In this document: positions 4,157 through 59,979 of the stretch, one piece after another
Layout of the letters: each line of letters begins with the position of its first letter
Numbering within the stretch: the first letter of the stretch is position 1
Origin: Candidatus Woesebacteria bacterium
GTDB lineage: Bacteria > Patescibacteriota > Microgenomatia > UBA1400 > UBA1396
Direction of reading: 5' to 3'
DNA: 64,000 bases
NCBI GenBank assembly: GCA_963749595.1
Contig: CAVVNJ010000003.1
Span: forward strand, 25,532-89,531
Translations under genes and position numbers: made by a program
Notes under the pieces: model-generated
Databases searched by the model: none
What the model saw: only the letters and a program-made list of their open reading frames with translations
Told to the model about the DNA's origin: nothing

Positions 4157-4312
4157 TGGCGGTTGGAATGATCCGATTAAATTCGATCAAGATCGGGAGA
4201 GCAAATACTTGGCACTCAAAACCGGTTAGAAAGCCAAGCTGGTGCTCTAGCCTCTATCGATTTTAAAGGACAAGTCGACGCCAATTCGCTTTTACCTGAA
4301 TTACGCGAAATC

Positions 4313-28717: not shown

Positions 28718-28803
28718 GCCACGGTGGCGGAATCGGTAGACGCGCGGGACTCAAAATCCCGTTCTGTGCAAGCAGAGTGTGGGTTCAAGTCCCTCCCGTG
28801 GCA
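28718..28803 (+). tRNA. tRNA-Leu (anticodon CAA)
   Basis: The acceptor stem GCCACGG pairs with CCGTGGC, with discriminator A. The D-arm GCGGAATCGGTAGACGC is typical of tRNA-Leu. The anticodon stem-loop is cggga-CTCAAAA-tcccg, and there is a long variable arm and a T-loop TTCAAGT. One T-stem mismatch, and no encoded CCA. Confidence 0.85.
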
Positions 28804-33734: not shown

Positions 33735-33744
33735 GAAGGAATAA

Positions 33745-34578: not shown

Positions 34579-34586
34579 GGAGAATA

Positions 34587-35387: not shown

Positions 35388-36165
35388 AAAAACTCGGCCC
35401 GTCGACGTCCAGTCTCCAGCTGATCGTCGACGAAACTTGGCGAAAATCATCACTCAGGGAAAAACTCCCGACGTTGCATTAAGACTAACCGCCGCGAAAG
35501 TACCGGATTCTCTTTTTAACAACCATGAACTTTTACAGGCAATCTATGGTCTTTGCGAAAAACTAGTGCCTCTGGCTAAAGAGATTGAGATAATTGTTGG
35601 CGACGATGCTAGCGGGCGGCTGCCAAGCTTACTGATAAAACACAGCTTGGATGCTGTGCGCCAAAAAATGGGTCTACCGCCTATACCGATTCGCTTTATC
35701 GCTTCGGGGAGGTCAACCGGTGAACAAACCGAGGCTGTTCGTCACTACTTGGAAGAGCATAAGTCTGAACTAGCGTCAGCGGTGATTGTAACCGAGTTTA
35801 TGAGCAGCGGGGAAAGTATGGCTGAGTTGGTAAGAATGTTCAGGGGGCTGGATTTAGAGCCGATCGTCGCGGCGGTGTCAATTGGTGGTGAGCCAGAGTT
35901 TTATCGGGAGAAGATACAGGCAAAAATCATTTATGGTCAGATCGGGCAAGCGGGCCTCGATTTTTACGGCTCTAAGAGTAGGCCATTTTCTGGTGTGAAT
36001 AAAAAAATGGGCGCGCGTGATAGTGCCCACTCCGAACCGACCAAAAAATATGAGGCAAAAACCAAGGAACAGCAAATTGATGTTCAGAGGACAATAAATG
36101 CGGCCCGCGATGATGTGGCTTTGGTGGGTGAGGTTTTCTCCAGGCTGTTGGCGAGGAGAAAATAG
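35380..36165 (+). CDS. PRT-fold (HGPRT-like) array paralog 4
   Basis: SPADRRRNLAKI; IIVGDDASGRLPSL; FIASG; VIVTEFMSSGESM; IVAAVS; DDVALVGEVFSRLL. Confidence 0.8.
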   Translation: MFKKTRPVDVQSPADRRRNLAKIITQGKTPDVALRLTAAKVPDSLFNNHELLQAIYGLCEKLVPLAKEIEIIVGDDASGRLPSLLIKHSLDAVRQKMGLPPIPIRFIASGRSTGEQTEAVRHYLEEHKSELASAVIVTEFMSSGESMAELVRMFRGLDLEPIVAAVSIGGEPEFYREKIQAKIIYGQIGQAGLDFYGSKSRPFSGVNKKMGARDSAHSEPTKKYEAKTKEQQIDVQRTINAARDDVALVGEVFSRLLARRK

Positions 36166-36184
36166 TTATTTACACTGGAGCCAA

Positions 36185-36943
36185 ATGAAATCAAGAACCA
36201 TCGATCAAAAAACTGTATCTGAGATTGTGATGCCTGGGGATAAAGACAAGATTTTGGAGGCTTTGGCCGGGCGCTTAAGAAGCAATTTCCAATCTATCGA
36301 AGTGCTCCAATCTTGTTATGAGCTTTGCGCTCAGTTGGCCCGAGATCCTGGCCGCTATGACACCATCATCAGCGATGATGCTAGTGGGCGATTAGTCAGC
36401 CTATTAGTCAAATCGGTTTTAGATCGAACACGGGAGAGAAAGGGGCTCAAGCCGCTGAATTTACGCTTTGTAGCCGGAGGAATCAACCGTTCCGATCAGA
36501 AAATAGCTATTCGAGAATATCTAGCAAAACATCATTCAGAATTTGGTCGGATCTTGTTAGTAACCGAAATTGTGGATACTGGAGATAGTATGCGCAATTT
36601 GCTACGACTTTTTGCTGATTTCAAATTAAGTCCTGATGTTGCCAGTGTCTCAATTGCAAAATTACCGGATAAATACCATGTCTTATTTTCGAACAAGCTA
36701 ATTTACGGAAGTCTTGGTTACGCTGGAGGCAATCTTTATGGTTTCGATTCCCGTCGGCAAGCGGGGGTAGATAAAAAGAGCACAGCGTCTTCCGCTCATC
36801 CGGCAAGTCTGAGAGCCACCGAGCTTAGGGGAGGCAACCAAAGAGTGGCACAACAAATACAATCAAGTGTTAATCAGACGAGGAAGGAGATCAATCTTAT
36901 CTCAGCTGTTTTTTTGCGCTTAATGGATTCAGAGAGAGTATGA
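36185..36943 (+). CDS. PRT-fold (HGPRT-like) array paralog 5
   Basis: TIISDDASGRLVSL; FVAGG; LLVTEIVDTGDSM (closest to the canonical PRPP loop); VASVS; SAHP. Start moved to the ATG at 36185, which has an SD. Confidence 0.8.
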   Translation: MKSRTIDQKTVSEIVMPGDKDKILEALAGRLRSNFQSIEVLQSCYELCAQLARDPGRYDTIISDDASGRLVSLLVKSVLDRTRERKGLKPLNLRFVAGGINRSDQKIAIREYLAKHHSEFGRILLVTEIVDTGDSMRNLLRLFADFKLSPDVASVSIAKLPDKYHVLFSNKLIYGSLGYAGGNLYGFDSRRQAGVDKKSTASSAHPASLRATELRGGNQRVAQQIQSSVNQTRKEINLISAVFLRLMDSERV

Positions 36944-37728
36944 GCCGTCGGACATCAGACCAATTACTGTCAGAATTTCACCCCTCAAAGGCGGATCAAA
37001 TTCGTCATAGTGCCGCACAAATTATTCAGGAGGTAGATGGAAGCAAAGAACAGACCCTGCTATTGCTAGCCGACCAACTCCATCATCCCTTAAATAGTGA
37101 GGCACTAATCACGGCGTTGTTTTCCTTAAGTGAGCAATTAGTACTTCAAGAAAAGGATTTTCAAATTCTGGTCGGTGATGAATCAAGCGGTCGTTTGCCA
37201 AGCTTACTAGTCAAAAAACTATTCGATTCCGTGCGAAGGAAGAGAAATTCACCCCCAATTCCGTTTATTCCACTGATCGGTGGCGGATTGAGGGGGGAAC
37301 AAAAAGCGGCTTTGGAAGATTATATTGCCCAGAATCGTGGGAAATTGCAGGGTGCTTTGATCGTGACGGAATACATCCAGTCCGGCGAGAGCATGCATGA
37401 TACTTTAAACATTTTTCGTCGGTATGATCTTCATCCCACTGTAGCGGCAATTTCAGCAGCGGCAGAAAGAGGTGCTTATCTGGGCTTGATTCCGAATAAA
37501 TTGGTACTCGGGAAAGATCAATCGAATGTAGGAGTTTATCTATGGAGCAAGGCTCGAGCGGCAGGTGTAGAGAAGCGGACTTCTGCTGGCCCGCACCCGG
37601 TGGCTCTAAAAAACAGAATCAGCGATCCGGATGAGCGACGGGAAATTCAGGAGAATATTAATCAGTCGCGGCGAGATATCGCTCTGATTGCCGAGGTGTT
37701 TGCCCAGCTGTTGGAACGAAAAAAATAG
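36940..37728 (+). CDS. PRT-fold (HGPRT-like) array paralog 6
   Basis: ILVGDESSGRLPSL; LIGGG; LIVTEYIQSGESM; TVAAIS; GPHP; RDIALIAEVFAQLL. ATGA overlap with paralog 5. Confidence 0.8.
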   Translation: MSRRTSDQLLSEFHPSKADQIRHSAAQIIQEVDGSKEQTLLLLADQLHHPLNSEALITALFSLSEQLVLQEKDFQILVGDESSGRLPSLLVKKLFDSVRRKRNSPPIPFIPLIGGGLRGEQKAALEDYIAQNRGKLQGALIVTEYIQSGESMHDTLNIFRRYDLHPTVAAISAAAERGAYLGLIPNKLVLGKDQSNVGVYLWSKARAAGVEKRTSAGPHPVALKNRISDPDERREIQENINQSRRDIALIAEVFAQLLERKK

Positions 37729-37740
37729 TACACTCGGGTT

Positions 37741-38610
37741 ATGAAAAAAATATCTCCTGACCAAATAGATACTATTTTTCAAGAGACCTCAGCTGATACC
37801 GCTGATGAGCGCAATGGAGCGGTTCTACTGAAATTATCTGAACATTTGAAAAGTAATCTTGACACTCCCGAAGTGTTATCAGCGTGCTATGAATTGTGCA
37901 AAAAATTAGCGGCTGATCCGGCAAAATACGATACCATCATCAGCGATGATGCCAGTGGCCGCTTGCCCAGTTTGTTGCTGAAAGAAATCTTAGATCAACT
38001 CCGAATCCGGCAAAATCTACCCCCCCTAAAGATCTGGTTTTTGTCCGCCGGTAGAAATCGATTAGAACAACGCGAGGCGATTGCCAAGTTCATTAATCAG
38101 CATCTTGACGATCTGCACCATGCCCTGATTGTTACCGAAATCGTTGATTCCGGCGAAAGCATGAAGAATTTCTCGCAAATATTCAAAAATTTTAGTTTGC
38201 TTCCTGATATCGCTAGTGTCTCTGCGGTCGTCGATCCCAGCTATTATCAGGGACTTTTTGTTAATCAATTGATTGTGGGTCAACAGGGCAGGGTTGGCGG
38301 GTATCTTCATGGCGAAGCGGCTCGATTCCAAGCAGGAGTGTCCAAGCAAGGCATGCGCCAACCCAGCGCTCATCCGCAATCTCTTCGCGAGGCGGCGCGT
38401 CCTGGGGATCGAGTGGATGTGCAAAGAGAAGTGAATCGTACGCGCCAAGAGATAGGCCTAATTGCTAAAGTATTTCTTAAGCTGTTAGAAATTGAGGAGA
38501 AGGAGGCAGGTGAAAACAAGGGTAGTGGATCAAACAAACAATCAGGAACGACCGGCAACCCAAGCCGAAGAATTGAGGATACAAGCGGAAACTATCATCG
38601 GAGAAAGTGA
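37741..38610 (+). CDS. PRT-fold (HGPRT-like) array paralog 7, with a ~40-aa C-terminal read-through overlapping paralog 8
   Basis: TIISDDASGRLPSL; FLSAG; LIVTEIVDSGESM; IASVS; SAHP; EIGLIAKVFLKLLE. It then continues for about 40 aa instead of stopping. Confidence 0.75.
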   Translation: MKKISPDQIDTIFQETSADTADERNGAVLLKLSEHLKSNLDTPEVLSACYELCKKLAADPAKYDTIISDDASGRLPSLLLKEILDQLRIRQNLPPLKIWFLSAGRNRLEQREAIAKFINQHLDDLHHALIVTEIVDSGESMKNFSQIFKNFSLLPDIASVSAVVDPSYYQGLFVNQLIVGQQGRVGGYLHGEAARFQAGVSKQGMRQPSAHPQSLREAARPGDRVDVQREVNRTRQEIGLIAKVFLKLLEIEEKEAGENKGSGSNKQSGTTGNPSRRIEDTSGNYHRRK

Positions 38611-39295
38611 GGGGGATGTAAAAAAAGCTCTGAAAGAGCTGGCCCAACAAGTCGACTCACCGTTAAATAAACCGGATTTGCTCGAAGCCATGTATTTATT
38701 GTGCGAGAAGCTGATTTCCCGGGTAGAAGAATTCTCGGTAATTATCAGCGACGAATCAAGCGGAAGGCTAGTTAGCTTGTTGGTAAAAAATCTGTTTGAC
38801 CGAAAGCGCTCATCGCCGGTGCCAATTACTTTTTTATTAGGCGGAAGGCTAGATTCGCCGCAGCGCAAGAACGTGATCGATTATCTGCGTCAACATCGAT
38901 CGAAATTGCAAAATGCTTTAATTGTTTCCGAATATCTTGAGTCGGGTGACAGCATGGCCGAGTTTTTGGCGGATTTTCGTTTGCAGAATCTGAAAGCCAA
39001 GGTAGCAGCGGTGTCCGCCATTGGAGTGGGCAATAGATATAGTCGATTATTTCCGGAAGAACTAATTGCCGGCAAGCTTTCTTCATCGGTTGGTATTTGG
39101 TTGCATGATGAATCTCTAGCCACTGGTGTTGACAAAAACTTTGCCGAGGGTCCATTTCCGAATCGGATTAAAGACGAAGACGAAACTTGGTCTCAACAGA
39201 AAAAAATAAGGATGCAGCACTCGGTTAATCAGGCTCGTCGGGACATTGCCTTGATTGCTGAAGTTTTTGCCCAGATGTTTGGACTACCGAGATGA
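38510..39295 (+). CDS. PRT-fold (HGPRT-like) array paralog 8
   Basis: GGAGG-cag-GTG start. VKTRVVDQTNNQERPATQAEELRIQAE; VIISDESSGRLVSL; FLLGG; LIVSEYLESGDSM; VAAVS; RDIALIAEVFAQMF. Confidence 0.8.
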   Translation: MKTRVVDQTNNQERPATQAEELRIQAETIIGESEGDVKKALKELAQQVDSPLNKPDLLEAMYLLCEKLISRVEEFSVIISDESSGRLVSLLVKNLFDRKRSSPVPITFLLGGRLDSPQRKNVIDYLRQHRSKLQNALIVSEYLESGDSMAEFLADFRLQNLKAKVAAVSAIGVGNRYSRLFPEELIAGKLSSSVGIWLHDESLATGVDKNFAEGPFPNRIKDEDETWSQQKKIRMQHSVNQARRDIALIAEVFAQMFGLPR

Positions 39296-39324
39296 TATAA
39301 ACTTGGCTGAGGAGGGGGAGGACA

Positions 39325-40116
39325 GTGAAAACAAGAGTAGTGGATCAGGTAACCAATCAGGAACGATCGGCAACCCGGGCCGAAGAATTGAAAATACAAG
39401 CGGAATCTATCATCGAAAGCAATAAAGGGTTATATAAATCAACCTTGAAGGAGTTGTCCAGACAGGTAAAGTTTCCACTAAATCAACCGGATTTGTTGGA
39501 CCCAATGTATTTGCTGTGCCGGAAGCTAATTCCCCGATCTGAGGAATTTAAGGTGATTGTTAGTGATGAGGGTAGTGGGCGACTGGTTAGTTTATTAGTC
39601 AAGGATCTGTTCGATCGTCGGCGCCTAGCTCCGATACCAATAACTTTTATACTCGGAGGAAGAATGACTCCTTCACAACGGAAGAAGGTGAGTGAACATT
39701 TTGCTCGGCACCGATCGGAATTAGATCACGCCTTAATTGTTTCCGAATATCTTGAATCTGGTAATAGCATGGCCAAATTTCTGGCCGACTTTCGCCAACA
39801 AAATTTGCAGGCAACGGTCGCTACCATCTCGGCTTTGGAATCGAGCGAAGAATATCGCCAATTATTTTCGGAAGAACTTATTGTCGGCCAATTACGTTCG
39901 AGCAGCGGTTTACAGTTGTATCGTGAGCCTGATGCCACTGGTGTTGAGAAGCGCTCTGCCGAAGGTCCGTTTCCAGATCGGATTAAGGATGAGGCCGAGT
40001 CTCTGACTAAGGCTGAAAAAATTAGCATCCAGCGTCCAATCAACCAAGCCCGCCGGGACATCGCTCTCATTGCAGAGGTGTTCGATAGATTATTAAAGAG
40101 CAACGAGGTTTCATGA
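39325..40116 (+). CDS. PRT-fold (HGPRT-like) array paralog 9
   Basis: GTG start after GGAGG. VKTRVVDQVTNQERSATRAEELKIQAE; VIVSDEGSGRLVSL; FILGG; LIVSEYLESGNSM; VATIS; RDIALIAEVFDRLL. It is the closest relative of paralog 8. Confidence 0.8.
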   Translation: MKTRVVDQVTNQERSATRAEELKIQAESIIESNKGLYKSTLKELSRQVKFPLNQPDLLDPMYLLCRKLIPRSEEFKVIVSDEGSGRLVSLLVKDLFDRRRLAPIPITFILGGRMTPSQRKKVSEHFARHRSELDHALIVSEYLESGNSMAKFLADFRQQNLQATVATISALESSEEYRQLFSEELIVGQLRSSSGLQLYREPDATGVEKRSAEGPFPDRIKDEAESLTKAEKISIQRPINQARRDIALIAEVFDRLLKSNEVS

Positions 40117-40907
40117 TGAAGTCACGACCGTTCGATACTCAATCTGATTCTCGTCAGCGTAAGGCTGAGGAAAGAGAGAAAATAGCCTCTGAAATAATCG
40201 ACCTTAACCAGGGAGACCTGGGACGAACTTGGGTTTCGTTAGCCGAAAAAGTTCATTTTCCTTTTGATAGCGAAAAATTGATCAGGGTAATGTTCCAATT
40301 AAGTGCGAAGCTAATTGCGCGCGAGTCGGAGTTTAAGAGGCTGATTAGCGATGAAGCGAGTGGTCGGTTGCCAAGTTTAATAATTAAGGATTTATTTGAC
40401 CGACGGCGGAAAGAGCGGGGGCAGGAAGAGATGCCATTATTATTCTTGTTGGGTGGAAGAATGCCAGATCAGCAGCATAGAGTGGTGCGGGAATACGTTT
40501 TAAAGCATCGGCATGAACTAGCGCAATCGCTGGTGGTTTCAGAATACATCGCTTCTGGTGAAAGCATGGCTTGGTTTTTAGATATTTTCCGGCAATTTGG
40601 TTTGGAGCCAGTGGTCTCCGCGGTTACTTGTCGCTATGGTCAGAAAGACTACAAAGTCCATTTTCCCAATGAGCTAATCGTTGGTGCCGACGATAGTACG
40701 ACCGGCCAGTATCTATGGAGTAAAGGATTAGCAACCGGAGTGGAAAAACCGCCAGAATCGGTGAAAAATCCTCCGCCTTTTCCGGAAGTTCGCAAAAATT
40801 ATCAGTGGTCGACTAGTTCCCGTGAGGCCCAGCAGGCCATATTGCGAGCGAGGGAAGACGTAGCCTTAATTTCGGAAGTATTTGCTCGATTGTTGAATAT
40901 TCAATAA
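40113..40907 (+). CDS. PRT-fold (HGPRT-like) array paralog 10
   Basis: RLISDEASGRLPSL; FLLGG; LVVSEYIASGESM; VVSAVT; EDVALISEVFARLL. ATGA overlap with paralog 9. Confidence 0.8.
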   Translation: MMKSRPFDTQSDSRQRKAEEREKIASEIIDLNQGDLGRTWVSLAEKVHFPFDSEKLIRVMFQLSAKLIARESEFKRLISDEASGRLPSLIIKDLFDRRRKERGQEEMPLLFLLGGRMPDQQHRVVREYVLKHRHELAQSLVVSEYIASGESMAWFLDIFRQFGLEPVVSAVTCRYGQKDYKVHFPNELIVGADDSTTGQYLWSKGLATGVEKPPESVKNPPPFPEVRKNYQWSTSSREAQQAILRAREDVALISEVFARLLNIQ

Positions 40908-40915
40908 GTTGACTT

Positions 40916-41785
40916 ATGCCAGGAAGAATTAATCGATTATCAAACGACGAAGGTGCCAGTGACTCAGCCGAAAAACGTCGCGAGTTAAAAGTACTAGCCG
41001 CCAAGATTCTTGCTGAGGGCGGACAAGATCGCGACCAGACTCTAAAATTGCTTGCCGAGAGTCTGAAGTCGCCACTGAGAGATTTTGGCTTGCTAAAGGC
41101 GCTATATTCATTAAGTCAACAACTATTACCACGATCGAATGATTTCGCAGTGATTGTCAGTGACGAAGCCAGTGGACGAATACCGAGTTTATTAGTTAAA
41201 GAGCTCTTTGATCGAGTGCGATTGAATCGGGGAGAGACCAAAATTCCAATCACTTTTTTGCTAGGTGGGTACACTCTACCTCAACAAAAGGCAAAGGTGG
41301 CAGATTTTGTTGCTGGACACAAAGGGGAGTTGGAACAGGCGCTAATCGTCTCGGAATTTATGATGTCCGGAGAAAGTATGGCAAATACTTTGGAAGATTT
41401 TCACCGACAGGGTTTGGATCCGACGGTAGCGGCAGTATCCACTTGGTACAAAAAGGGTGAATATAAACGTCTTGCTTCAGATAAATTAGTGATTGGGGTT
41501 GACGATGACAATATCGGCGCCACCAGATTGTGGGGGGAAACTACCTCCTCTGGAGTGGTTAAGCTCGAAACCTCGCCTGGGCCGCATCCGGAGTCGACAA
41601 AACTGGTGAAGAAGGGAAATGACCTGCACGATATGTCAGAGATTGACTTCGCGGAACCAGTTCAGAAAGACATCGCTTTGGCTAGGGGAGAGATTTATCT
41701 TGTGGCGGAGGTATTTTTTGGTATGCTAGCCTCGCCTCCCAAACAGTCTTGGCTTCAGCGTTTAAAAAATGGGGGGAAAGAATAA
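40916..41785 (+). CDS. PRT-fold (HGPRT-like) array paralog 11
   Basis: VIVSDEASGRIPSL; FLLGG; LIVSEFMMSGESM; TVAAVS; GPHP; GEIYLVAEVFFGML plus a short tail. Confidence 0.8.
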   Translation: MPGRINRLSNDEGASDSAEKRRELKVLAAKILAEGGQDRDQTLKLLAESLKSPLRDFGLLKALYSLSQQLLPRSNDFAVIVSDEASGRIPSLLVKELFDRVRLNRGETKIPITFLLGGYTLPQQKAKVADFVAGHKGELEQALIVSEFMMSGESMANTLEDFHRQGLDPTVAAVSTWYKKGEYKRLASDKLVIGVDDDNIGATRLWGETTSSGVVKLETSPGPHPESTKLVKKGNDLHDMSEIDFAEPVQKDIALARGEIYLVAEVFFGMLASPPKQSWLQRLKNGGKE

Positions 41786-42580
41786 ATGCAACCGCGAGTT
41801 AATGTATTAAATTTGCGTCAGGAGAAAGACAGCCAGGCTGAGGTTCGTCGGGAGTTGCGTAAGCTGGCTGAGCAAATATTGAAACGGGGAAATGGTGAAA
41901 AACAGAAGACCTTGAAGTTGCTGGAAAAATATCTTGAATACCCGTTTGAAGTCGATGTTCTTAAAGCAATGTTCTCGCTTAGTCAGCAATTAATTTCCCG
42001 GTCCGACAGTTTTGATACGATTATTGGTGACGAAGGCAGTGGTCATTTAATAGCCTTAATGTTAAAGGAGGTCTTTGATCGCGAGCGGGTGAAGCGTGGG
42101 CAGGAGAAAATTCCAATTACTTTTTTGCTGGGTGGCTTGACTACCGATGGCCAGGAAAAAAAAGTTAATGAGTTTGTCGGACAACACCAGGCTCAGCTGA
42201 GTCGTGCACTGATTGTTACGGAATATATCTTGTCCGGGCGAGGCATGGTTAATTTGCTGAAGAGCTTTTCGCACTATGGCCTGACGCCGGTTTTAGCCGC
42301 AGCAACTACCCAATATGAGAAGAAAGACTATGCTGAACTTTTTGGGGTCGAGTTAGTCATTGGTACTGAAGAGAGTGGCGCGGGATTGAATTTATATTCT
42401 AAACCCGCCTTGACTGGGGTACAAAAAAGGCCGGAGAGCCCCGGTCCTCACGCTGAAGCATATAAAAAACTGGTTTCCCAGTTAGGGTTGAAAAAAGAAA
42501 TCCAGAGAGAAGTTAACTTTGGTCGTGACCAGGTTTTTCTGATTGCCGAGGTTTTTTACGGACTACTACAGTCCAAATGA
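41786..42580 (+). CDS. PRT-fold (HGPRT-like) array paralog 12 (most divergent)
   Basis: TIIGDEGSGHLIAL; FLLGG; LIVTEYILSGRGM; VLAAAT; GPHA; DQVFLIAEVFYGLL. It starts immediately after the paralog 11 stop. Confidence 0.8.
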   Translation: MQPRVNVLNLRQEKDSQAEVRRELRKLAEQILKRGNGEKQKTLKLLEKYLEYPFEVDVLKAMFSLSQQLISRSDSFDTIIGDEGSGHLIALMLKEVFDRERVKRGQEKIPITFLLGGLTTDGQEKKVNEFVGQHQAQLSRALIVTEYILSGRGMVNLLKSFSHYGLTPVLAAATTQYEKKDYAELFGVELVIGTEESGAGLNLYSKPALTGVQKRPESPGPHAEAYKKLVSQLGLKKEIQREVNFGRDQVFLIAEVFYGLLQSK

Positions 42581-45558: not shown

Positions 45559-46116
45559 ATGTCTGGTCATAGTAAGTGGTCCAACATTAAGAACCGTAAA
45601 GGGGCCCAAGACGCCAAGCGGGCTAAGGACTTTTTTCAGATTGCCAAGCAGATTCGTGTGGCAGTGAAGACGTCGCATAACGGCGACCAGGATACTAATG
45701 CCGCACTTCGTTTGGCGGTCGAGAAATCGCATGAAGTCGGAATGCCCAAGGAAACGGTTCAACGAGCCATCAACCGCGCGCTGGGCCAGGGCGAACATGG
45801 CGAAGCGGTGCAGGAGCTGATTTACGAGGGCTACGGGCCGCAGGGAGCCGGTTTTTTGGTCGTGGCGGTAACCGACAACGTCCAGCGCACGGCCGCAACT
45901 TTAAGATTTTTATTTTCCCGACATGGCGGTTCGCTGGGCGGCCCCGGCTCAGCGATGTTTCTTTTCCGGCGGGAAGGGGACGAGTTTATAACCACCGCCC
46001 CAATAACCTTGTCAGGTGAGCTGGCGGCAGAAGTGTCCGAACTCTATGACGCTTTGCAAGCGGAGGAAGACGTTGAGGAGGTATACACGAACGCTGATTG
46101 GGAAGGAAAAGAGTAA
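45559..46116 (+). CDS. yebC: YebC/PmpR-family transcriptional regulator (short form)
   Basis: MSGHSKWSNIKNRKGAQDAKRAK and YEGYGPQGAGFLVVAVTDN. Confidence 0.85.
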   Translation: MSGHSKWSNIKNRKGAQDAKRAKDFFQIAKQIRVAVKTSHNGDQDTNAALRLAVEKSHEVGMPKETVQRAINRALGQGEHGEAVQELIYEGYGPQGAGFLVVAVTDNVQRTAATLRFLFSRHGGSLGGPGSAMFLFRREGDEFITTAPITLSGELAAEVSELYDALQAEEDVEEVYTNADWEGKE

Positions 46117-46883
46117 TGCGCCGCCGTCAAAAATTCGTTCTGGCTTCCCTGATGTTGTCGGTCAGCTTTGTGGCCGTGCAGTACATTCCCTTGGACTGGC
46201 GCCCACTGGGGTTGCTGGTTTTCGCCTTGCTGGCCTATCTGCTGGCAGCTTGGTCCATGTTTGACAATCTAGATGGGATCGAGTGGCTAACGGTGGTGCC
46301 TTTGCCCGCACTCTACGCTTTATCAGTTTCCGGTTTTTATTTTTTACTGCCGGCGAGCTGGCTGGCGCGGGCGGTGATTATGGGGTTGTTTGGTTTGGGA
46401 ATGTACGCTCTATTTTTGGCCGGAAATATTTTCACGGTCGCTAAGTTTCGTACTATTCAGCTGCTACGAGCTGCTCAGGCCGTGCTGTTTTTCTTTTCCC
46501 TGATCGCGGCGTTATTGGTTTATAACACCGTATTCTCGTTGGGACTCTGGTTCCTCTGGAATGGTTTACTAGTGGGTTTGGCCACCACTTTGTTGTGCTT
46601 TTCCTTCTTTTGGTCGGTCCGACTTGAGGCGCGGTTGAGTAGAGAAGTCTGGTCCTTAACTTTCCGTACGGGGATAATCATTGGTTTTATGGCGATGGTG
46701 CTTTCTTTTTTCCCCTCATCGCTCTGGCCGACTTCGCTATTAATGATGACGGCAATGTATGTTTTGCTCGGGCTGGGGCAGTCGGCCTTGGAACAGCGTT
46801 TATTTACCAATACTGTTCGCGAATATCTGGCGGTACTGATTGGTGTCTCGGTGATGTACTTGTTCCTGTTGCCCTGGAAATAG
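46116..46883 (+). CDS. Polytopic membrane protein, unknown function
   Basis: At least seven hydrophobic helices. TAATG overlap with the yebC stop. Confidence 0.65.
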   Translation: MRRRQKFVLASLMLSVSFVAVQYIPLDWRPLGLLVFALLAYLLAAWSMFDNLDGIEWLTVVPLPALYALSVSGFYFLLPASWLARAVIMGLFGLGMYALFLAGNIFTVAKFRTIQLLRAAQAVLFFFSLIAALLVYNTVFSLGLWFLWNGLLVGLATTLLCFSFFWSVRLEARLSREVWSLTFRTGIIIGFMAMVLSFFPSSLWPTSLLMMTAMYVLLGLGQSALEQRLFTNTVREYLAVLIGVSVMYLFLLPWK

Positions 46884-47026
46884 CCTGGCCACCAGGCAGA
46901 GCCGGGCAGGGGAGTTAGGGGTTGGTAAGCGGAAAGTCGCTCAAGTAATGTAGTTTAGATCCTATAACAATAGAATACGTTTTATTTTCACGCGTGAAAA
47001 AGAGGAGTAACGAAACTTCAAACCAA

Positions 47027-47035
47027 TGTGGATAA
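47027..47035 (-). promoter_or_regulatory. Perfect DnaA-box 9-mer (TTATCCACA on the minus strand)
   Basis: tgtggataa at 47027-47035. Confidence 0.3.
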
Positions 47036-47335
47036 CTTTGCTGATGACCTTTGATATAGTTAGACAGTGGTTGCTAGTCTCTGCCAGGTGAAGCCAGATG
47101 CAAGAATAAATCACGGCCAGTTGGGTGGTAAGGCGGAGAAAACCCGAATACGCACCCTGGAGCCATTGGCAGAGGATCACTGAAGTGCTGAGGAAAGGGT
47201 CAAATTAATGTGCCCAATATCTGAGGGAAGCGATGATGTTAGGGGAAATAACGACCGTCTAGGATCGTAATTTCGGTCGGCTCTGCCCTTTGATGATGTC
47301 ATGTTAGTTCGTTGGTGGGTACAAAATGTGATCCT

Positions 47336-47363
47336 AAGTCGCAAAATGTATATTGTGCGACAT
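47336..47363. other. dif-like recombinase site: 11-bp arm, 6-bp spacer, 11-bp inverted arm
   Basis: AAGTCGCAAAA-TGTATA-TTGTGCGACAT. The arms match each other at 9 of 11 positions. It has the same 11-6-11 layout and the same central TGTATA as E. coli dif (GGTGCGCATAA TGTATA TTATGTTAAAT, quoted from memory). It lies ~820 bp upstream of a Xer-type recombinase gene. Confidence 0.5.
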
Positions 47364-47738
47364 AATAACGATCGGTCGGGTGAGGGGTAAGACGATCGGT
47401 TTTGGCTTCTCCCAAATTGCGTTGAAGTGTTCACCCACCGCTATTGATCGGTAATCTAACCCTCCACTTCCCGACCCCGGAAAAATTTCTTCAATTTTGT
47501 TCAACTGGAGAAAAACCCGAATAATTGATCCGAATTGAGGCGGATTGATAATTTAGAAAGCAGAAAGATAAGGCTATAGTTGTCGCCTTTTGCTGAGAAA
47601 AGCCGTTTTTGGGCTTCACAGCGGGTCAATATCTGGTAGCGACTGTTCTTTTCCCAGGTAAGCACGCGTTGGTCGTAAAAATGATATTCGTACGTTCTGG
47701 AATTTGATCCAGAAAGAAAAACATCCCTCCCATTTTCA

Positions 47739-47758
47739 TGTACTAGTGTACTAGTACA
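47739..47758. promoter_or_regulatory. Second copy (19/20) of the 20-bp palindrome TGTACTAGT(G)TACTAGTACA with conserved flanks
   Basis: 47734-47770 (tttcatgtactagtgtactagtacatagaaaaagatg) is near-identical to 29281-29317 (ttccatgtactagtatactagtacaagaaaaagtatg), including the ATG. Confidence 0.6.
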
Positions 47759-48006
47759 TAGAAAAAGATGAAGCTCCTGAAGATCGTTAGTCGACTTTAT
47801 GGGCGGGTAATATATTCCCGCTGACGCTTTGTACACCGTCAGAATATTGGTGACTGTGTACATAGTGCTGGGGAGATACTGGTAACTCTCAGTAGTCGAG
47901 TTTCTTTGTGAGAATACCTATTACTAGCCTTGGACCCAAAGAGTCCCCAAGATTGAGCTCTTATTGCCGAGCTGACCAAGACGTTATTTTTTTCGTCTAA
48001 TCCCCT

Positions 48007-48060
48007 ATGTCGCACAAGAAAAACTAAGCACTTGACAGCTCTACCCTAAATGTCGCACAA
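48007..48060 (+). repeat. Two direct copies of the dif-like arm ATGTCGCACAA (third degenerate copy at 48169-48179)
   Basis: atgtcgcacaa lies at 48007-48017 and 48050-48060. Both are the exact reverse complement of the right arm of the 47336-47363 site, giving 12-bp inverted repeats ~640-690 bp apart. Confidence 0.6.
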
Positions 48061-48069
48061 TGACGACAG

Positions 48070-48078
48070 TTATCCACA
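48070..48078 (+). promoter_or_regulatory. Perfect DnaA-box 9-mer TTATCCACA
   Basis: ttatccaca at 48070-48078. Confidence 0.3.
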
Positions 48079-48185
48079 CTCCCCTCGCCCCATTTGTTTA
48101 GGCTGGGGGAGTGAGATGACGCTAGTGGTAGTGCCCCTACCCCATTTCTGGCACTAGATTTTGTGGTTGACTCGCACAAAAAGTA

Positions 48186-49190
48186 TTGATAGATCCGCAA
48201 AATCGCCTAAATTCCCCCGCTAGCACTCCAAAGCCTATGCCTGCTAATCTGACTGGTCAAAACCTACGTTCTCAAATTAAAGAATATCTTGAACACATCG
48301 AGGTCGAACGCAACCTCTCGCCCCTGACGGTACGTGACTATTCACTCTATCTCGATCGTTTTGCGACATGGGCCTCGGTCTACGGCATCATGAGCATTAC
48401 CCAATTGGATCTCTATGGGGTTAAAAAATATCGTCTGCATTTAGCCAGGATAAAAAACCATAAGGATCAACCTATTTCGGCTCGTACTCAGGGCTATTAC
48501 ATTATTGCTCTCCGTTCATTTTTGAAGTGGCTGATCAAAATGGACGTGACCGTTTTGCCGCCGGAAAAGATTGACTTGCCAAAGATAGATCCAGGGGCAA
48601 TGCATTTTTTGTCGCCGGAGCAGATGAATCGCTTATTATCTCAACCCGATATTCATTCCATCCAGGGATTACGCGATCGGGCACTGTTGGAAGTTTTATT
48701 TTCCACTGGACTAAGGGTCTCGGAATTAGTTTCGCTGGATCGCGACCAGGTGAATTTGGAACGACGAGAATTTGGCGTGCTGGGCAAAGGTCGCAAGGTA
48801 CGGGTGGTTTTTTTAAGCACTGACGCGGCGGATTGGCTGGAGCGATATATAGAACGCCGTACCGACCCTTGGACGCCGGTTTTTATTCGTCACGCCAAGG
48901 GAATTGATCCCAGTGAAGACGGCGAGAAAATGCGTCTTTCTACCCGCTCCGTGCAGAGAATCGTGGAGACCTATCGAAAAAAAGCTACTATACCAGTTAA
49001 AATTACGCCACATGGCATTCGCCATACTTTTGCCACCGACTTGTTGCGCAATGGTGCCGGCCTGCGTGACGTTCAAGAACTTTTGGGCCACAAAAACTTA
49101 GCGACGACGCAAATTTATACCCATGTGACTAAGCCGGAGTTGCGCCGCGTCCACGAGAAATACCATTCGCACTCTGATAAAGATCAATGA
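48186..49190 (+). CDS. xerC: Tyrosine site-specific recombinase, XerC/XerD family
   Basis: N-terminal SAM-like domain (EYLEHIEVERNLSPLTVRDYSLYLDRF). The catalytic residues lie in RALLEVLFSTGLRVSEL and HGIRHTFATDLLRNGAGLRDVQELLGHKNLATTQIYTHV. The start is TTG at 48186 or ATG at 48237. Confidence 0.9.
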   Translation: MIDPQNRLNSPASTPKPMPANLTGQNLRSQIKEYLEHIEVERNLSPLTVRDYSLYLDRFATWASVYGIMSITQLDLYGVKKYRLHLARIKNHKDQPISARTQGYYIIALRSFLKWLIKMDVTVLPPEKIDLPKIDPGAMHFLSPEQMNRLLSQPDIHSIQGLRDRALLEVLFSTGLRVSELVSLDRDQVNLERREFGVLGKGRKVRVVFLSTDAADWLERYIERRTDPWTPVFIRHAKGIDPSEDGEKMRLSTRSVQRIVETYRKKATIPVKITPHGIRHTFATDLLRNGAGLRDVQELLGHKNLATTQIYTHVTKPELRRVHEKYHSHSDKDQ

Positions 49191-49208: not shown

Positions 49209-49646
49209 CTAGCGGTGGTCCTGGCCATTACCGGAAAATTTAGGACGCTGGCGGGCTGAGCGGGCCACAATTTGCCCTTTTTCCCAATAGAGCAGCTGAC
49301 CGGCATCGGCGGCTTTAACATCCGCATGTTTGGTATTGGGATTGATCGTAACCAGAGCATTATTAATCGGTCGAACGAAACCAATGATCTGCCCTTCAAT
49401 CAGGTGGTCATGCTCGTCAACCGAAACAATGTAATTTGAAGGTAGGATTTCTCCCCGGAAGATTACTTTTTCACCGTCGAGTCGATCAATATCCGCTCGG
49501 TCTAATGGCGCGATCGCCGCCAAGATCTGGCTTTCCGGTCGGAGTACGGAAGCACTGATCTCGGCCTCAGGTTGACGAGGGGGGCGAACGAAATGTTTTT
49601 TTTGCGCCGCGTGGTGATGTCGTTCTTTGCTCGGTTTTTTTCCCAT
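49209..49646 (-). CDS. Hypothetical protein with basic N-terminus
   Basis: 145-aa ORF starting MGKKPSKERHHHAAQKKHFVRPPRQ. No recognisable domain. Confidence 0.5.
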   Translation of the reverse strand: MGKKPSKERHHHAAQKKHFVRPPRQPEAEISASVLRPESQILAAIAPLDRADIDRLDGEKVIFRGEILPSNYIVSVDEHDHLIEGQIIGFVRPINNALVTINPNTKHADVKAADAGQLLYWEKGQIVARSARQRPKFSGNGQDHR

Positions 49647-49668
49647 TCGGGTAATTATAACGGAAATT

Positions 49669-50127
49669 TCAGCGGTGGGTCGGGGAACTTCGCTTGGTTT
49701 GGGCTAGTATGTCAAGGTAGGTCACCCGATCATGGATTTTTTTAACTGATAATTTACTGTCGTAAATCATTTGATGTAAGTCATTCATGCCATGCAAGTT
49801 GTCACCGAACCGACGGGTTGAATGCACGGAGGCATAAAACCCGGTTATTCCCACATAATGTTTGCTAATCGCGCGGCAAAGGTGGGCATAAGGCTCGATG
49901 GTTTCAATCGATGAGGCCGAGTTAAGTATTCGGGAAGCTCGGTGCCACCAGGATAAAATCGCGTCAATTTTGGCTTGTTTATCCTTGAGTTGAGCGAGTT
50001 TTCCGCTCGGGCCCCAGAGATCGTTTAGCTCAATAATCAGTGAAGCAACTTCTTTTTCCAAAGCCGTAGGTTCCTTGGAAAAGAGCTTGTCGCTCTGTTC
50101 AGTGAGAAAAGACCGCAGCCGCTGCAT
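49669..50127 (-). CDS. Hypothetical helical protein, paralog of the 50178-50585 product
   Basis: The shared blocks are LIIELNDLWG..ILSWWHRASRIL versus LIKELNEM..LVDWWSRASKVL. Confidence 0.55.
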   Translation of the reverse strand: MQRLRSFLTEQSDKLFSKEPTALEKEVASLIIELNDLWGPSGKLAQLKDKQAKIDAILSWWHRASRILNSASSIETIEPYAHLCRAISKHYVGITGFYASVHSTRRFGDNLHGMNDLHQMIYDSKLSVKKIHDRVTYLDILAQTKRSSPTHR

Positions 50128-50177
50128 AGGGCCTCCTTAGATGGATCCTAGCATATCGGCAACGATATTATCAGAAA

Positions 50178-50577
50178 TTAGGACTCTTCGGGCTCGGGTT
50201 TGACGAATTTGTGTAATAAACCCTGAATTGATTCCCGACCTCGGCCTTTGGAAAGCATAATTTCCAGTTTTTGGGCCAATTCTCGCTCAGCGTCAGTCCC
50301 CTTGTCTTTATGATGCATGATGTAATAGCTAGAATATTTTGAGATGCGGTCAAAGTTGGCAGCGATGGCGTCGCGTAATTTGCTTTTATGAAATGGATTA
50401 TCCAAGTCTTCTTTAGCCAACACCTTGGAGGCTCGGGACCACCAATCTACCAAGTACTCGGCAGCCATGGGCATCTCGTTCAGCTCTTTGATCAATCGAG
50501 TGGTAGGACTCGAAAAAACCTCTTTCGCTCGATCAATTAAGCCATTTTTTTCGCCCATAGTTGACTCCTTTAGGGAA

Positions 50578-50585
<8 letters not shown>
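50178..50585 (-). CDS. Hypothetical helical protein, paralog of the 49669-50127 product
   Basis: See 49669-50127. Its start overlaps the gyrA stop region. Confidence 0.55.
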
Positions 50586-53374
<2,789 letters not shown>

Positions 53375-57834: not shown

Positions 57835-59979
57835 ATGGCTGCGATACCGACTGTTACTCTGGAACTGCGGACCCCCCGCTCGGCTGAACAGACGGCGGAG
57901 GCAATGATCCAATTCTTTACCGCTCTCCCCTCCCCGCCCCGCGGCGTGATGGGTTTTTGGCGCCAGGCTCCGGCGATTACTTTGGAGTTTTTGAACCAGG
58001 GGCAAATGACCTACTGTTTGGCTTCCGTCCCGGTCAACTTATCCGACTATTTGCAAAGTCAGTTGGCAGCCGCCTATCCCGAGATTTTAATAAAACCCTT
58101 AGCCCACAACCCGCTGGAAGAATTTCGCGAATCAAAACCCAAAGACGGTGGTGAGTTAAAATTTTCGGCCGCGAGTTATTTCCCCTTGCGCACTTTTCGC
58201 GATTATAAGGAATCCGACCCGTTGGCTTCGGTGCTGTCGGCACTGTCAAAACTAAGCGAGGGCGAGACGGCAATGATTCAGTTGACGATCCGCAAAACGA
58301 GGGAGCGTTGGAAGCAAACCGCCCATTCTGCCCGCCAAAATTCCCCAGCCGGCTCCTCTGCTCTGGGTTTGCCGCACCAGGAGATAATCAACCGCAAGCT
58401 CGGTCAGACTTCCCTGGCCTTTCGCCTGCGGTTGCTCGTCCAAGCCGCCGACCAAGCGCGGGCGAAACAAATTACCGAGTCGTTGGCCACCGCCTATGGC
58501 GCCTTTCAATCAGAAACGAACAGCTTGATTTTCCGTCGCCCGCGCTTGCGCCGGGAAAAATTTCTCAGTGAGATTGTAGAACGACGCATTGGTCGGGCCA
58601 CCAATCACTTGTCTCTGGACGAAGCGGCCTCGCTTTTCCACTTGCCCAATAAGACCCTCTCCCCGATTAAAAATATTGCTTGGGGTAAAAATCTCCTCGG
58701 TGAGCCGCCGGAAAATTTGCCCACCTTCACCCAGACTAGCGAGTCGGAACGCCAACACCTGAATCTATTTTCCAAAGTCGAGTTTAAGAATCAGGAACAA
58801 ATCTTTGGCTTGAAGCGCACCGACCGGGCGCGTCACACCTACATTGTTGGTAAAAGCGGTACCGGTAAGTCGACTCTCTTGGCGAATATGATCATTAACG
58901 ATTTGAAACACAACGAGGGCTTGGCCGTAGTTGACCCACATGGCGACTTGATCGAAACGATACTCGACTATATTCCGAAACACCGTATTAATGACGTGAT
59001 TGTTTTTGATCCGGCCGATCCGCACGCCGTGGTTAAGCTGAATTTGTTTGAAGGCGGTTCGGAAGTTTATCGCGAGCTGGTAGCGTCCGGAATTGTGGCA
59101 ATTTTTCAAAAGATGTATGCCAAATCCTGGGGACCGCGCTTGGAGTATATTTTGCGCAACACGTTGCTGACGTTGTTAGACCGGCAAGCCAAGTTGGAGG
59201 ACGTGTTGCGCTTGCTCACCGATGAGCGATACCGGGAAAAGGTGGTGAGCGAGATGGACGATCAAGTTTTGAAAAACTTTTGGTTGGCTGAGTTTAACCA
59301 GATGCAGCCAAAACTGCGGACCGAATCGATTTCGCCGATTCTCAACAAGGTAGGTCAATTCGTCACCTCGCCGCTGATTCGCAACGTGGTGAATACGACC
59401 ACTAGCTCGTTTGACATCGAGGAAATCATGAATCAGGGCAAGATCTTGTTGGTTAACGTTTCTCAAGGCAAGCTGGGTGAGGATAACGCGGCGCTGCTGG
59501 GAGCAATGATTATTACCAAGATCCAGCTGGCGGCGATGAATCGCGTTTATCTGCCGGAAGAGCAGCGCCGCGACTTCTACCTTTACATTGACGAGTTTCA
59601 GAATTTTGCTACCACCTCGTTTATCAAAATCTTGTCGGAAGCGCGTAAGTACCGGCTGAATCTGATTTTGGCCAACCAGTACATTGCCCAGATACCGGAG
59701 GAAGTGCGGGCGGCCATTTTCGGCAACGCTGGCAACCTAATCAGTTTCATCGTTGGGGCGGATGACGCGACGCATTTGCAAAAAGAGTTTAACGGCAAAT
59801 ATACCCAAGAGGATCTGGTGTCTCTGGGACGCTACCAAATTATTTGTAAGTTGTTGATTGATGGTCAGGTTTCCCAGCCTTTTCCGGCCACGACGCTGCC
59901 CTTGGCCGGCTCAACTAACCAGAATCGGGAGAAAGTACTCCAAGTTTCCCGCGAGCGTTATGCCCGCAAGCGCACCTGA
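57835..59979 (+). CDS. TraD/TraG/VirD4-like (type IV coupling protein-like, FtsK/HerA superfamily) ATPase without TM segments
   Basis: Walker A is VGKSGTGKSTLL, followed by VVDPHGD. Walker B is FYLYIDEFQNF. The TraG-D_C-like region is YRLNLILANQYIAQIPEEVRAAIFGNAGNLISFIVGADDATHL. The N-terminal ~320 aa are of unknown fold. Confidence 0.7.
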   Translation: MAAIPTVTLELRTPRSAEQTAEAMIQFFTALPSPPRGVMGFWRQAPAITLEFLNQGQMTYCLASVPVNLSDYLQSQLAAAYPEILIKPLAHNPLEEFRESKPKDGGELKFSAASYFPLRTFRDYKESDPLASVLSALSKLSEGETAMIQLTIRKTRERWKQTAHSARQNSPAGSSALGLPHQEIINRKLGQTSLAFRLRLLVQAADQARAKQITESLATAYGAFQSETNSLIFRRPRLRREKFLSEIVERRIGRATNHLSLDEAASLFHLPNKTLSPIKNIAWGKNLLGEPPENLPTFTQTSESERQHLNLFSKVEFKNQEQIFGLKRTDRARHTYIVGKSGTGKSTLLANMIINDLKHNEGLAVVDPHGDLIETILDYIPKHRINDVIVFDPADPHAVVKLNLFEGGSEVYRELVASGIVAIFQKMYAKSWGPRLEYILRNTLLTLLDRQAKLEDVLRLLTDERYREKVVSEMDDQVLKNFWLAEFNQMQPKLRTESISPILNKVGQFVTSPLIRNVVNTTTSSFDIEEIMNQGKILLVNVSQGKLGEDNAALLGAMIITKIQLAAMNRVYLPEEQRRDFYLYIDEFQNFATTSFIKILSEARKYRLNLILANQYIAQIPEEVRAAIFGNAGNLISFIVGADDATHLQKEFNGKYTQEDLVSLGRYQIICKLLIDGQVSQPFPATTLPLAGSTNQNREKVLQVSRERYARKRT

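Follow-up and report, generated by a model that had tools for sequence, protein, structure and literature searches.

What is a 28-bp palindrome with the layout of a Xer recombination site doing upstream of a tyrosine recombinase gene in a member of the Patescibacteria? The element lies in the non-coding DNA to the left of xer in a 64,000-nucleotide stretch of a Candidatus Woesebacteria contig (CAVVNJ010000003.1), which we call the window and whose positions are counted from its first letter. A first-pass annotation, made from the letters of this stretch, had left three readings side by side: a chromosomal dif placed next to a single Xer recombinase, with extra arm copies acting in autoregulation; the attachment (att) site of an integrated element; or one boundary of an invertible phase-variation switch. 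Judged by sequence comparison, the site is real and conserved beyond chance, and it is most likely a variant of the known Xer/dif system for chromosome unlinking. The best explanation, which we hold to be probable, is that it represents the dif-type core recombination site of this Patescibacterium, accompanied by Xer half-sites on the xer promoter. Our confidence is fairly high that the 28-bp element is a Xer target site, and moderate both for chromosome-dimer resolution as its function and for autoregulation of xer.

The element reads directly as two inverted 11-bp arms separated by a 6-bp centre, which is the canonical layout of XerCD/dif sites. Its earlier description as a Xer-type architecture with the central hexamer of Escherichia coli dif holds up well, as 19 of its 28 positions match that site, the entire hexamer included. 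The left and right arms are identical at nine of 11 positions, as would be expected for a single recombinase. One copy of the core site is found in the 64-kb window and one in each related locus of 13-21 kb, with no second full site in the window or in any of these relatives even when three mismatches are allowed over 18 arm positions. An apparent second site in the related locus L013 (position 12301; loci from relatives and other contigs are numbered L001 onwards) falls inside gyrA and was judged to be a chance match.

Comparison of related loci shows this site to be under strong constraint. It lies in a 1.3-kb stretch without a convincing gene, between the gene for a DUF5656 membrane protein (46098-46883) and xer, and the gene order tgt-lytR-TPR(-)-yebC-DUF5656-(long gap)-xer-(small genes)-gyrA(-)-ppa-gyrB recurs in relatives whose Xer is from 81% down to 50% identical (L001-L014, L098 and L106, including Candidatus Woesebacteria GW2011_GWB1_39_10). 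Source databases label the Xer homologues as Woesebacteria or Patescibacteria, and in at least 12 genomes xer belongs to the syntenic core. In the relatives, 1.3-2.1 kb of non-coding DNA precede xer; the length of this gap is itself conserved, and such a length is unusual for compact genomes. Each of 12 genomes with the conserved gene order has one core site in this gap. In L001, L003, L004, L005 and L009, where Xer is 65-81% identical, 26-27 bp of the site are invariant while the flanks have diverged, the surrounding non-coding DNA showing numerous indels and an identity of about 60%. When the gap is aligned across four genomes (mean column identity 60%), the core site stands out as the longest invariant block.

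The small difference between the arms is also preserved, with A at position 9 of the left arm and C at the matching position of the right arm in every copy. Four relatives (L007, L011, L012 and L014) have the same arms with the A/C asymmetry and the centre reversed relative to xer, and the flanking motifs nevertheless keep their orientation. Because of these reversals, the orientation of the site with respect to neighbouring genes is judged to be unconstrained, which is what would be expected of a recombination site and not of a directional regulatory element. In distant Patescibacteria, the DNA immediately ahead of xer holds dif-like palindromes of other sequences (Table 1). Recombinase and site are linked, as they are in XerS/difSL, at 385-1215 bp upstream of xer in the 12 genomes and at 63-173 bp in L049, L050, L032 and L053.

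The adjacent gene encodes a plausible partner. The first-pass annotation had placed its start at a TTG codon (48186); the recorded 317-residue protein begins at the ATG at 48237, from which the homologues also align, and this ATG is almost certainly the true start. The protein matches the Pfam Phage_integrase domain PF00589 (9.5e-44) and a SAM-like N-terminal domain, its closest solved structure is that of E. coli XerD (1A0P, 1e-38), followed by archaeal XerA, and the catalytic residues R160, K184, H259, R262, H285 and Y294 are invariant among 17 homologues. By its domains and catalytic residues, Xer is an intact XerC/XerD-type tyrosine recombinase. Assignment to a named type is another matter: its NCBIfam scores for XerC (241 bits) and XerD (239 bits) are both under the equivalog cut-offs, as are those for XerS (NF003462, 122 bits vs 267), XerA (NF040815, 206.9 bits vs 220) and the integron integrase (TIGR02249, 110 bits vs 265), and no XerH structure is among its matches in the PDB at 1e-10. 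Near the core site a single xer was found. The window contains no ftsK gene.

Table 1. Coordinates of the core site, of features in the xer upstream region and of comparable sites in distant Patescibacteria
Feature	Position	Strand	Basis or remark
dif-type Xer core site	47336..47363	no strand	read directly; 11-6-11
Core-site left arm AAGTCGCAAAA	47336-47346		read directly
Core-site central region TGTATA	47347-47352		read directly
Core-site right arm TTGTGCGACAT	47353-47363		read directly
Half-site 1 ATGTCGCACAA	48007..48017	+	exact copy; 14 nt upstream of -35
-35 hexamer TTGACA of predicted xer promoter	48032..48037	+	consensus prediction
Half-site 2 ATGTCGCACAA (48050-48060) plus T	48050..48061	+	exact copy
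Predicted -10 CACAAT, the end of the half-site 2 unit	48056-48061	+	consensus prediction
DnaA-box-like AGTTATCCACA	48068..48078	+	at about +1 of predicted promoter
DnaA box (TGTGGATAA on + strand)	47027..47035	-	~310 bp left of core site
xer, XerC/XerD-like tyrosine recombinase, 317 aa	48237..49190	+	Pfam/NCBIfam, structure search, recorded protein P0001
Degenerate third arm copy of first-pass annotation, GACTCGCACAA	48169..48179	+	3 mismatches; not conserved in L001, L003, L004
One-mismatch arm copy in xer (TTTTGCGACAT on + strand)	48359..48369	-	codons R-F-A-T-W
Perfect 16-bp palindrome TTTTCACGCGTGAAAA	46985..47000	no strand	left end of conserved non-coding module; kept in L001 (one change), L003, L004
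Motif AAAACCCGAAT, left copy	47139..47149	+	~200 bp left of core site; 12-bp exact direct repeat with 47512
Motif AAAACCCGAAT, right copy	47512..47522	+	174 bp right of core site
dif-like palindrome of WWE3 L050, GCGTCGTTAAA-CATACA-TTTAACGACAA	-173 relative to xer
dif-like palindrome of Kuenenbacteria L032, ATGTCGTATAA-TATAAG-TTAAACGACTA	-152 relative to xer
dif-like palindrome of L053, AGTTCGCATAA-TGTAGA-TTAACCGAACT	-66 relative to xer
dif-like palindrome of Nealsonbacteria L049, ACTTCGCACAA-TGTAGG-TAAAGCGACAC	-63 relative to xer

What, then, are the additional arm copies near the recombinase gene? The exact 11-mer ATGTCGCACAA occurs at 47353 (-), where it is the right arm of the full site, and at 48007 (+) and 48050 (+), the two exact copies that had been reported before. 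These are inverted with respect to the right arm, as the annotation stated, and hence direct with respect to the left arm. It had also reasoned that an arm sequence common throughout the genome would speak against a dedicated site; in the 64-kb window the 11-mer is confined to these three places. About 0.03 exact copies would be expected by chance (128000/4^11, counting both strands, 128 kb), so three within 700 bp are far beyond chance. Allowing one mismatch raises the number in the window to four, a less impressive figure that three of 100 shuffles also reach. Because no recognisable second arm lies 6 bp from either the 48007 or the 48050 copy, on either side, we consider both to be half-sites. 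The degenerate copy at 48169 does exist, with eight contiguous matches (TCGCACAA), and is conserved in none of the relatives aligned; we judge it best taken as a chance match outside the system. Another copy with one mismatch, missed by the annotation, lies inside xer itself, where L001 and L004 have the same codons and L003 does not; its significance is uncertain.

The two half-sites coincide with a predicted promoter. The top promoter-like match in the region is TTGACA-18-CACAAT, which agrees with the consensus at 10 of 12 positions, and six genomes share a layout in which half-site 1 is followed after 9-14 nt by TTGACA (TTGACC in L005) and, 12 nt further on, by half-site 2, whose last six bases (CACAAT or CAGAAT) stand 18 nt from the -35 hexamer. 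Half-site 1 occupies the same place, 37-43 bp from half-site 2, in L001, L003, L005, L098 and L106. In five of the six genomes (the window, L001, L003, L098 and L106, not L005), a DnaA box of the form AGTTWTCCACA begins 5-6 nt after half-site 2. More widely, 10 of 12 related genomes have a half-site on or close to the xer promoter. Half-site matches also gather around the core site: of the 23 in 220 kb of chromosomal loci from relatives, 21 are no more than 1.5 kb away from it. In lineages with a spacing of just 63-173 bp between full site and xer, the site itself occupies the promoter region; in L049 its right arm is followed, 5 nt further on, by the hexamer TATAAT. This layout suggests autoregulation by Xer: because the half-sites bracket the xer promoter, surplus Xer would repress its own transcription.

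Downstream of this promoter, the predicted xer leader contains two hairpins, one at 48077-48113 (CACTCCCCTCGCC/GGCTGGGGGAGTG), kept in L001 and L003 in a shifted register (by eye), and one at 48122-48156, in which CTAGTG...CACTAG is followed by ATTTTGTGG. They could form an attenuator or a small transcript.

DnaA boxes recur in association with the site. The only two perfect TTWTCCACA matches in the 64-kb window are at 47027-47035 and 48070-48078, that is, within the gap, and nearly all relatives examined have TGTGGAWAA 135-410 bp to the left of the core site. Across 54 Patescibacteria loci, the DNA upstream of xer is enriched about 4-fold in such boxes (p ~3e-5, the loci not being independent), and across 59 phage-like loci the DNA up to 1 kb from the site is enriched 3-4-fold (p ~9e-7). 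We infer a regulatory or architectural role for them. Boxes also accompany xer or a dif-like site in distant classes of Patescibacteria, at ~9818 in L032, 9662 in L049, -38 in L058 and -113 in L060.

The site is not restricted to this gene neighbourhood. Its exact 26-bp core was found in 19 JGI metagenome contigs, once in each, and five of them have the DUF5656-xer context. The 26-mer also occurs in unrelated low-GC chromosomal contexts without xer (L092/L094/L095, L101 and L108), lying in L092/L094/L095 between a cell-wall/gltX block and a mreB/murA/holB-like block (judged by N-terminal sequences), and in tailed-phage contigs (L097/L104, L099, L102 and L109) that have genes for the terminase large subunit, portal and major head proteins according to PHROGs. 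The arm pattern GTCGCAAAA-N6-TTGTGCGAC is present once in each of 60 IMG/VR viral contigs (L110-L169), one of which has a second, weaker match 67 bp away. In these viral sites the arms are fixed and the centres vary (TACATA in nine, TGTATA in six, TGTAGA in five, and others). Because the arms are kept across phages and hosts of 31-61% GC while the centre varies, the site looks like the target of a trans-acting recombinase, most plausibly the adjacent single XerD-like enzyme. A gene similar to this Xer was detected in the retrieved stretch of one of the 60 viral loci, in a search that a more distant phage integrase would escape; this near-absence is consistent with use of the host enzyme. No viral locus has yebC, DUF5656, tgt, gyrA or gyrB beside the site, as a host-phage junction would.

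Contigs end near the site more often than expected. Among metagenome contigs, nine of 14 end within 300 bp of it vs 3.2 expected, and among viral contigs six of 20 vs 1.9. Alternative junctions at an active site would produce such an excess, and variation between strains could do so too. L101, L102, L104, L091, L103 and L105 are among the contigs that end near the site, and in sample Ga0265293 the chromosome is split into two contigs (L103 and L105) that overlap at it. Genes diverge at the site in L099 and in L097/L104, a group to which L091 also belongs. The phage contig L104 has three direct dif-like sites, at 73, 2557 and 4549, with the centres TGTATA, CTTACA and GCAACG, and these may reflect cassette-like modules bounded by Xer sites. 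In L100 (1308 bp), the exact site is flanked on both sides by arrays of DnaA boxes (GAATTATCCACAGGTTATCCACAAGTTATACACA and others), and the last ~300 bp look tRNA-like by eye; the whole resembles a phage or plasmid origin region beside a Xer site. Covariation of the outer positions in phage sites, which would have pointed to a hairpin, is explained, by inspection, by an independent pyrimidine/purine preference in each arm.

Taken together with the likeness to dif, these data lead us to propose the following course of events. Two monomers of the adjacent XerD-like recombinase would bind the two nearly identical 11-bp arms, two such sites would synapse, and strand exchange would take place over the 6-bp centre TGTATA. 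The A/C difference at arm position 9 probably sets the order of exchange, a role ascribed to arm asymmetry in other single-recombinase Xer systems. The likely cellular role would be the unlinking of chromosome dimers, and phages and other replicons that bear the site would probably use the host enzyme to integrate or to resolve their own multimers. The half-sites would serve as single Xer-binding sites rather than as recombination partners, one of them upstream of the -35 hexamer and the other over the -10. Xer bound there would occlude the -35/-10 region and limit its own synthesis, and the DnaA box at about +1 would add DnaA as a second input to xer.

Does the site lie where a chromosomal dif is expected to lie? 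The first-pass annotation had proposed skew as a means to see whether the locus is at the terminus. GC skew at third codon positions (GC3 skew), computed for the + strand, is +0.116 for + strand genes and +0.119 for - strand genes to the left of the site, and +0.127 for - strand genes to its right. The sign is equal for genes of both strands, so the skew follows the strand and not the direction of transcription, and it keeps that sign from 47 kb left to 16 kb right of the site, which leaves a placement at the terminus without support. A survey of Proteobacteria and Firmicutes puts dif at 0-1.39% of genome length from the skew shift (1 sigma), with outliers below 3% (PMC3025954). If a genome of ~1 Mb is assumed, a skew switch 16-30 kb to the right of the site would still be inside the outlier range of that survey. 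Genes converge on the site in the window and also in L005, L007, L010, L011, L014 and L092/L095; because they do so while the skew keeps its sign, gyrA, gyrB, ppa, holB, pgi and pgm lie on the skew-lagging strand. At the xer/dif-like locus of L049, a complete genome from Nealsonbacteria, GC3 skew flips together with gene orientation, in a terminus-like manner.

Several observations weigh against our proposal. The placement at the terminus that a canonical dif would have is not seen within the window, where GC3 skew changes sign nowhere from -47 to +16 kb, a distance of 16 kb already being 1.6% of a ~1 Mb genome; neither is a flip found in L005, L007, L010, L011 and L014 or in the xer-less L092/L095. 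The number of half-sites varies among relatives, L007 and L011 have no promoter half-site within two mismatches, and the xer promoter is predicted from its match to the consensus only. No integrated element, excision junction or dimer-resolution product was seen. The single-recombinase label is inferred from arm symmetry and from the window, and the data all come from metagenome assemblies, the relatives not being independent samples. Of the annotation's three readings, that of a chromosomal dif beside a single Xer recombinase fits best and survives in part, with a conserved single dif-like site linked to xer and conserved promoter half-sites, and without its terminus.

How do the alternatives fare on this evidence? 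We regard it as very unlikely that the site is the att boundary of an integrated element that brought in xer together with the three genes at 49209-50585. This explanation draws on the far side of xer, where the three small genes have no homologue in the same slot of any relative, nor indeed in any locus retrieved, even at 81% Xer identity, and no match in Pfam or NCBIfam. Because these genes are unique to this genome, the xer-gyrA interval, which holds 0-3 unrelated small genes that differ between genomes, is best described as a hypervariable slot; in addition, phages carry the identical site. The variable genes, however, are separated from the site by xer itself, which holds the same place in the gene order of at least 12 genomes, at identities as low as 50%, and gyrA follows xer directly, with no genes between, in L013 and L098. 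An inserted element should also be flanked by a pair of sites, and the window, like each relative, has a single full one. What remains of the earlier att reading is that phage contigs do carry the site; at this locus, with a single site beside a core syntenic xer, it is unsupported. An invertible switch spanning 47364-48006 and flipped by the adjacent recombinase is, in our view, extremely improbable. The perfect 12-bp inverted repeats on which that idea was built are present (47353-47364/48006-48017), a further pair is found at 47352-47363/48050-48061, a tyrosine recombinase gene adjoins them, and Xer has NCBIfam matches to tyrosine-type invertases, weak ones of 34-44 bits vs cut-offs of ~220. 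Tyrosine recombinases act on two-armed sites, and the right-hand repeats are single arms with neither a second arm nor a matching centre; they are located on the xer promoter itself and not at the edge of a movable promoter, and relatives with one promoter half-site, or none, still have the full site. The assemblies likewise fail to reveal inversion. The right copy of AAAACCCGAAT is at +170 to +177 from the site, on the same strand, in all seven genomes that have it (the window, L001, L003, L004, L005, L009 and L098), and the paired independent assemblies L001/L002, L005/L006 and L007/L008 are colinear. With half-sites only, and one orientation in every assembly examined, the ~650-bp inverton of the first-pass annotation is not supported.

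Two further explanations do away with recombination or give it second place. The palindrome and half-sites could be operators of an ordinary transcription factor, such as the YebC-family protein encoded two genes upstream, with the likeness to dif a coincidence; we consider this quite improbable. The half-sites are indeed located on a promoter, and the gap holds other conserved short motifs that resemble binding sites and are shuffled in order between genomes. Those motifs do not travel with the site, though, and the identical 26-mer is present in phages and in chromosomes with neither xer nor yebC nearby. The 11-6-11 layout, the fixed arms and variable centres of the phage sites and the different palindromes of distant lineages are, moreover, hallmarks of recombination sites. 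That the 1.3-kb conserved gap is a replication origin, with the palindrome as an origin element, we find highly improbable too. Such an origin would account for the only two perfect DnaA boxes of the 64 kb being in this gap and conserved, for their ~4-fold enrichment upstream of xer and ~3-4-fold enrichment near the phage site, for the position of the L100 site inside a DnaA-box cluster, for the proximity of gyrA and gyrB, and for a gap that is exceptionally long for a small genome and conserved in length. Against it, the skew flips in neither sense, the boxes are two only, ~1 kb apart and one of them at the xer transcription start, dnaA and dnaN are absent from the window, the neighbouring genes point towards the gap and not away from it, and in L049 the trio of box, site and xer lies at a flip of the terminus type.

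Within the proposal of a dif-type core site, a bolder version can be entertained, to which we give limited credence: a self-contained Xer module with one recombinase, used by Patescibacteria away from the skew-defined terminus, wired to DnaA, and exploited widely by tailed phages by means of exact copies of the host site. Such phages would form a class of Xer-dependent tailed phages, and the site would offer a tag by which to assign phages to these uncultured hosts. The wiring to DnaA would be based on the box beside the site and the xer promoter in distant classes and on the clustering of boxes near the site in phages. Because the site would then work away from the skew-defined terminus, there would probably be no FtsK-guided positional rule. 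The extreme form of this idea, in which origin and terminus functions are juxtaposed at the locus, is unlikely.

The gap contains further conserved motifs, namely TTTTCACGCGTGAAAA, TTGATATAGTTAG, TGCAAGAATAAAT and two direct copies of AAAACCCGAAT, whose order varies by genome. The left copy of AAAACCCGAAT lies 176-242 bp to the left of the site in most relatives examined and is not there in L014. None of these motifs accompanies the site in phages or other chromosomes, and they look like lineage-specific protein-binding sites. A structured RNA in the left module (46950-47330) was considered and rejected on fold z-scores of -0.67 and +0.10 and on a motif order that changes between genomes. At gathering thresholds, Rfam returned only the tRNA-Leu at 28718 for the whole window, a permissive Rfam scan of 46700-48300 gave only chance-level matches (E ~2-5), and ARAGORN found no transfer-messenger RNA. 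A near-perfect palindrome of GTAC repeats, CATGTACTAGTGTACTAGTACATAG, lies at 47736-47760 in the variable part of the gap. It is not shared by the relatives, and one Logan contig from this species stops at it. In L009, about five tandem copies of a ~40-bp unit (…ttttatcttaggcggcgtttggtg.acgcctttc…) occupy 8860-9040, between DUF5656 and the conserved motifs.

Some features of the neighbouring genes deserve mention in their own right. The three - strand genes at 49209-50585 encode proteins of 145, 152 and 135 aa, and those of 152 and 135 aa have in common a WW.RAS motif by eye and may be paralogues. The window's gyrA (50578-53106, -) appears as three overlapping or adjacent open reading frames (52771-53106, 51836-52735 and 50578-52056), while the gyrA of relatives is one gene of 842-975 aa; the split may reflect frameshifts from assembly error, or a pseudogene. 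Between gyrB and holB, a gene at 57835-59979 encodes a 714-aa ATPase, a TraD/VirD4-like coupling protein, inserted there in no genome but this one; it is absent from that position in L005, L009 and L010. Further to the left, at 32877-42580, twelve consecutive + strand paralogues of 261-289 aa have best pairwise identities of 40-64%; three members tested have no Pfam match, and the GC content of this stretch, 0.45-0.47, is below that of its surroundings. L009/L010 have half a dif site, ATGTCGCACAATATAT (the right arm and most of the centre), at 4175-4190 between tgt and an extra Gmad2-domain gene. Because that gene is absent from the same position in other relatives, the half-site may be the scar of a Xer-related insertion.

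Xer/dif is among the most widespread of housekeeping recombination systems, and the Patescibacteria are a very large branch of mostly uncultured bacteria with tiny genomes. A search of the available papers turned up no account of Xer/dif for Patescibacteria or the Candidate Phyla Radiation, which is not proof that none exists. If our proposal is correct, the sequence of the phylum's dif site and its cognate enzyme are in hand, together with a conserved case of a Xer that apparently keeps its promoter in check by way of half-sites, a DnaA box lying where transcription starts. The 24-28 bp tag GTCGCAAAA-N6-TTGTGCGAC would tie dozens of tailed-phage contigs to Patescibacteria, hosts to which phages are otherwise hard to assign. 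The locus would also be a test case of whether dimer resolution must take place at the terminus in minimal-genome bacteria.

How does this locus compare with known Xer systems? In XerS/difSL of streptococci and lactococci, recombinase and site are immediately adjacent and form one module (PMC5357621). Here too one recombinase is linked to a site that lies upstream of the gene. The 31 bp of difSL, however, include a centre of 11 bp, whereas the arms of this 28-bp site are only 6 bp apart. The site here lies 0.4-1.2 kb from a gene that has separate promoter half-sites, and the protein does not reach the XerS model. The 28-bp 11-6-11 layout and TGTATA centre are those of XerCD/dif, and XerD and XerC are the nearest proteins by sequence; unlike that system, the near-identical arms imply one recombinase and not a XerC/XerD pair, the protein scores below both equivalog cut-offs, and the site is linked to its gene rather than found at a GC-skew switch, at least within -47/+16 kb.

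Other single-recombinase systems offer partial parallels. XerH/difH of Helicobacter and Campylobacter and XerL/dif of Legionellales resolve dimers with one enzyme, as proposed here, and differ in their site sequences, with no detectable close sequence relationship. XerL/dif of Legionella was recognised through the dif mimic of a mobile element (PMC9765430), which parallels the phage-borne copies of our site; the same paper places the Legionella dif close to the replication terminus. Archaeal XerA/dif shares with this locus one recombinase, a 28-bp site and similar arms, and XerA structures are among the top PDB matches. Work on Sulfolobus reportedly found that archaeal XerA/dif has no strict tie to the termination zone. 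The present case differs in its bacterial lineage, in the linkage of site and gene, and in a score just under the XerA cut-off. TnpI/IRS of Tn4430 and Tn5401 comprises a tyrosine recombinase gene preceded by a two-armed core and direct-repeat binding motifs, which overlap the promoter and provide autoregulation and control of the reaction. This resembles the arrangement of core and promoter half-sites here. The motifs of TnpI/IRS, however, adjoin the core within ~120 bp on a transposon, whereas the half-sites are 0.33-0.87 kb away on a chromosome, where no transposase is present.

The phage copies of the site finally bring to mind the integrative mobile elements exploiting Xer (IMEX) such as CTXphi, VGJphi, TLCphi and LME-1, which carry a dif-like site and use the host Xer, as set out in PMC5357621 and PMC9765430. 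Likewise, most phage contigs found here carry the site, and in the stretch retrieved from them no Xer-like gene could be detected. The known examples in these papers are mostly filamentous phages or small elements, whereas the contigs here are tailed phages. Because no integrated phage copy was found, plasmid-like multimer resolution is an equally good reading as phage integration. As far as sequence can place it, the locus resembles the single-recombinase Xer modules, yet it is a member of none of the named types, because its enzyme falls below the XerS, XerA, XerC and XerD cut-offs and its site is one of 28 bp and not 31 bp.

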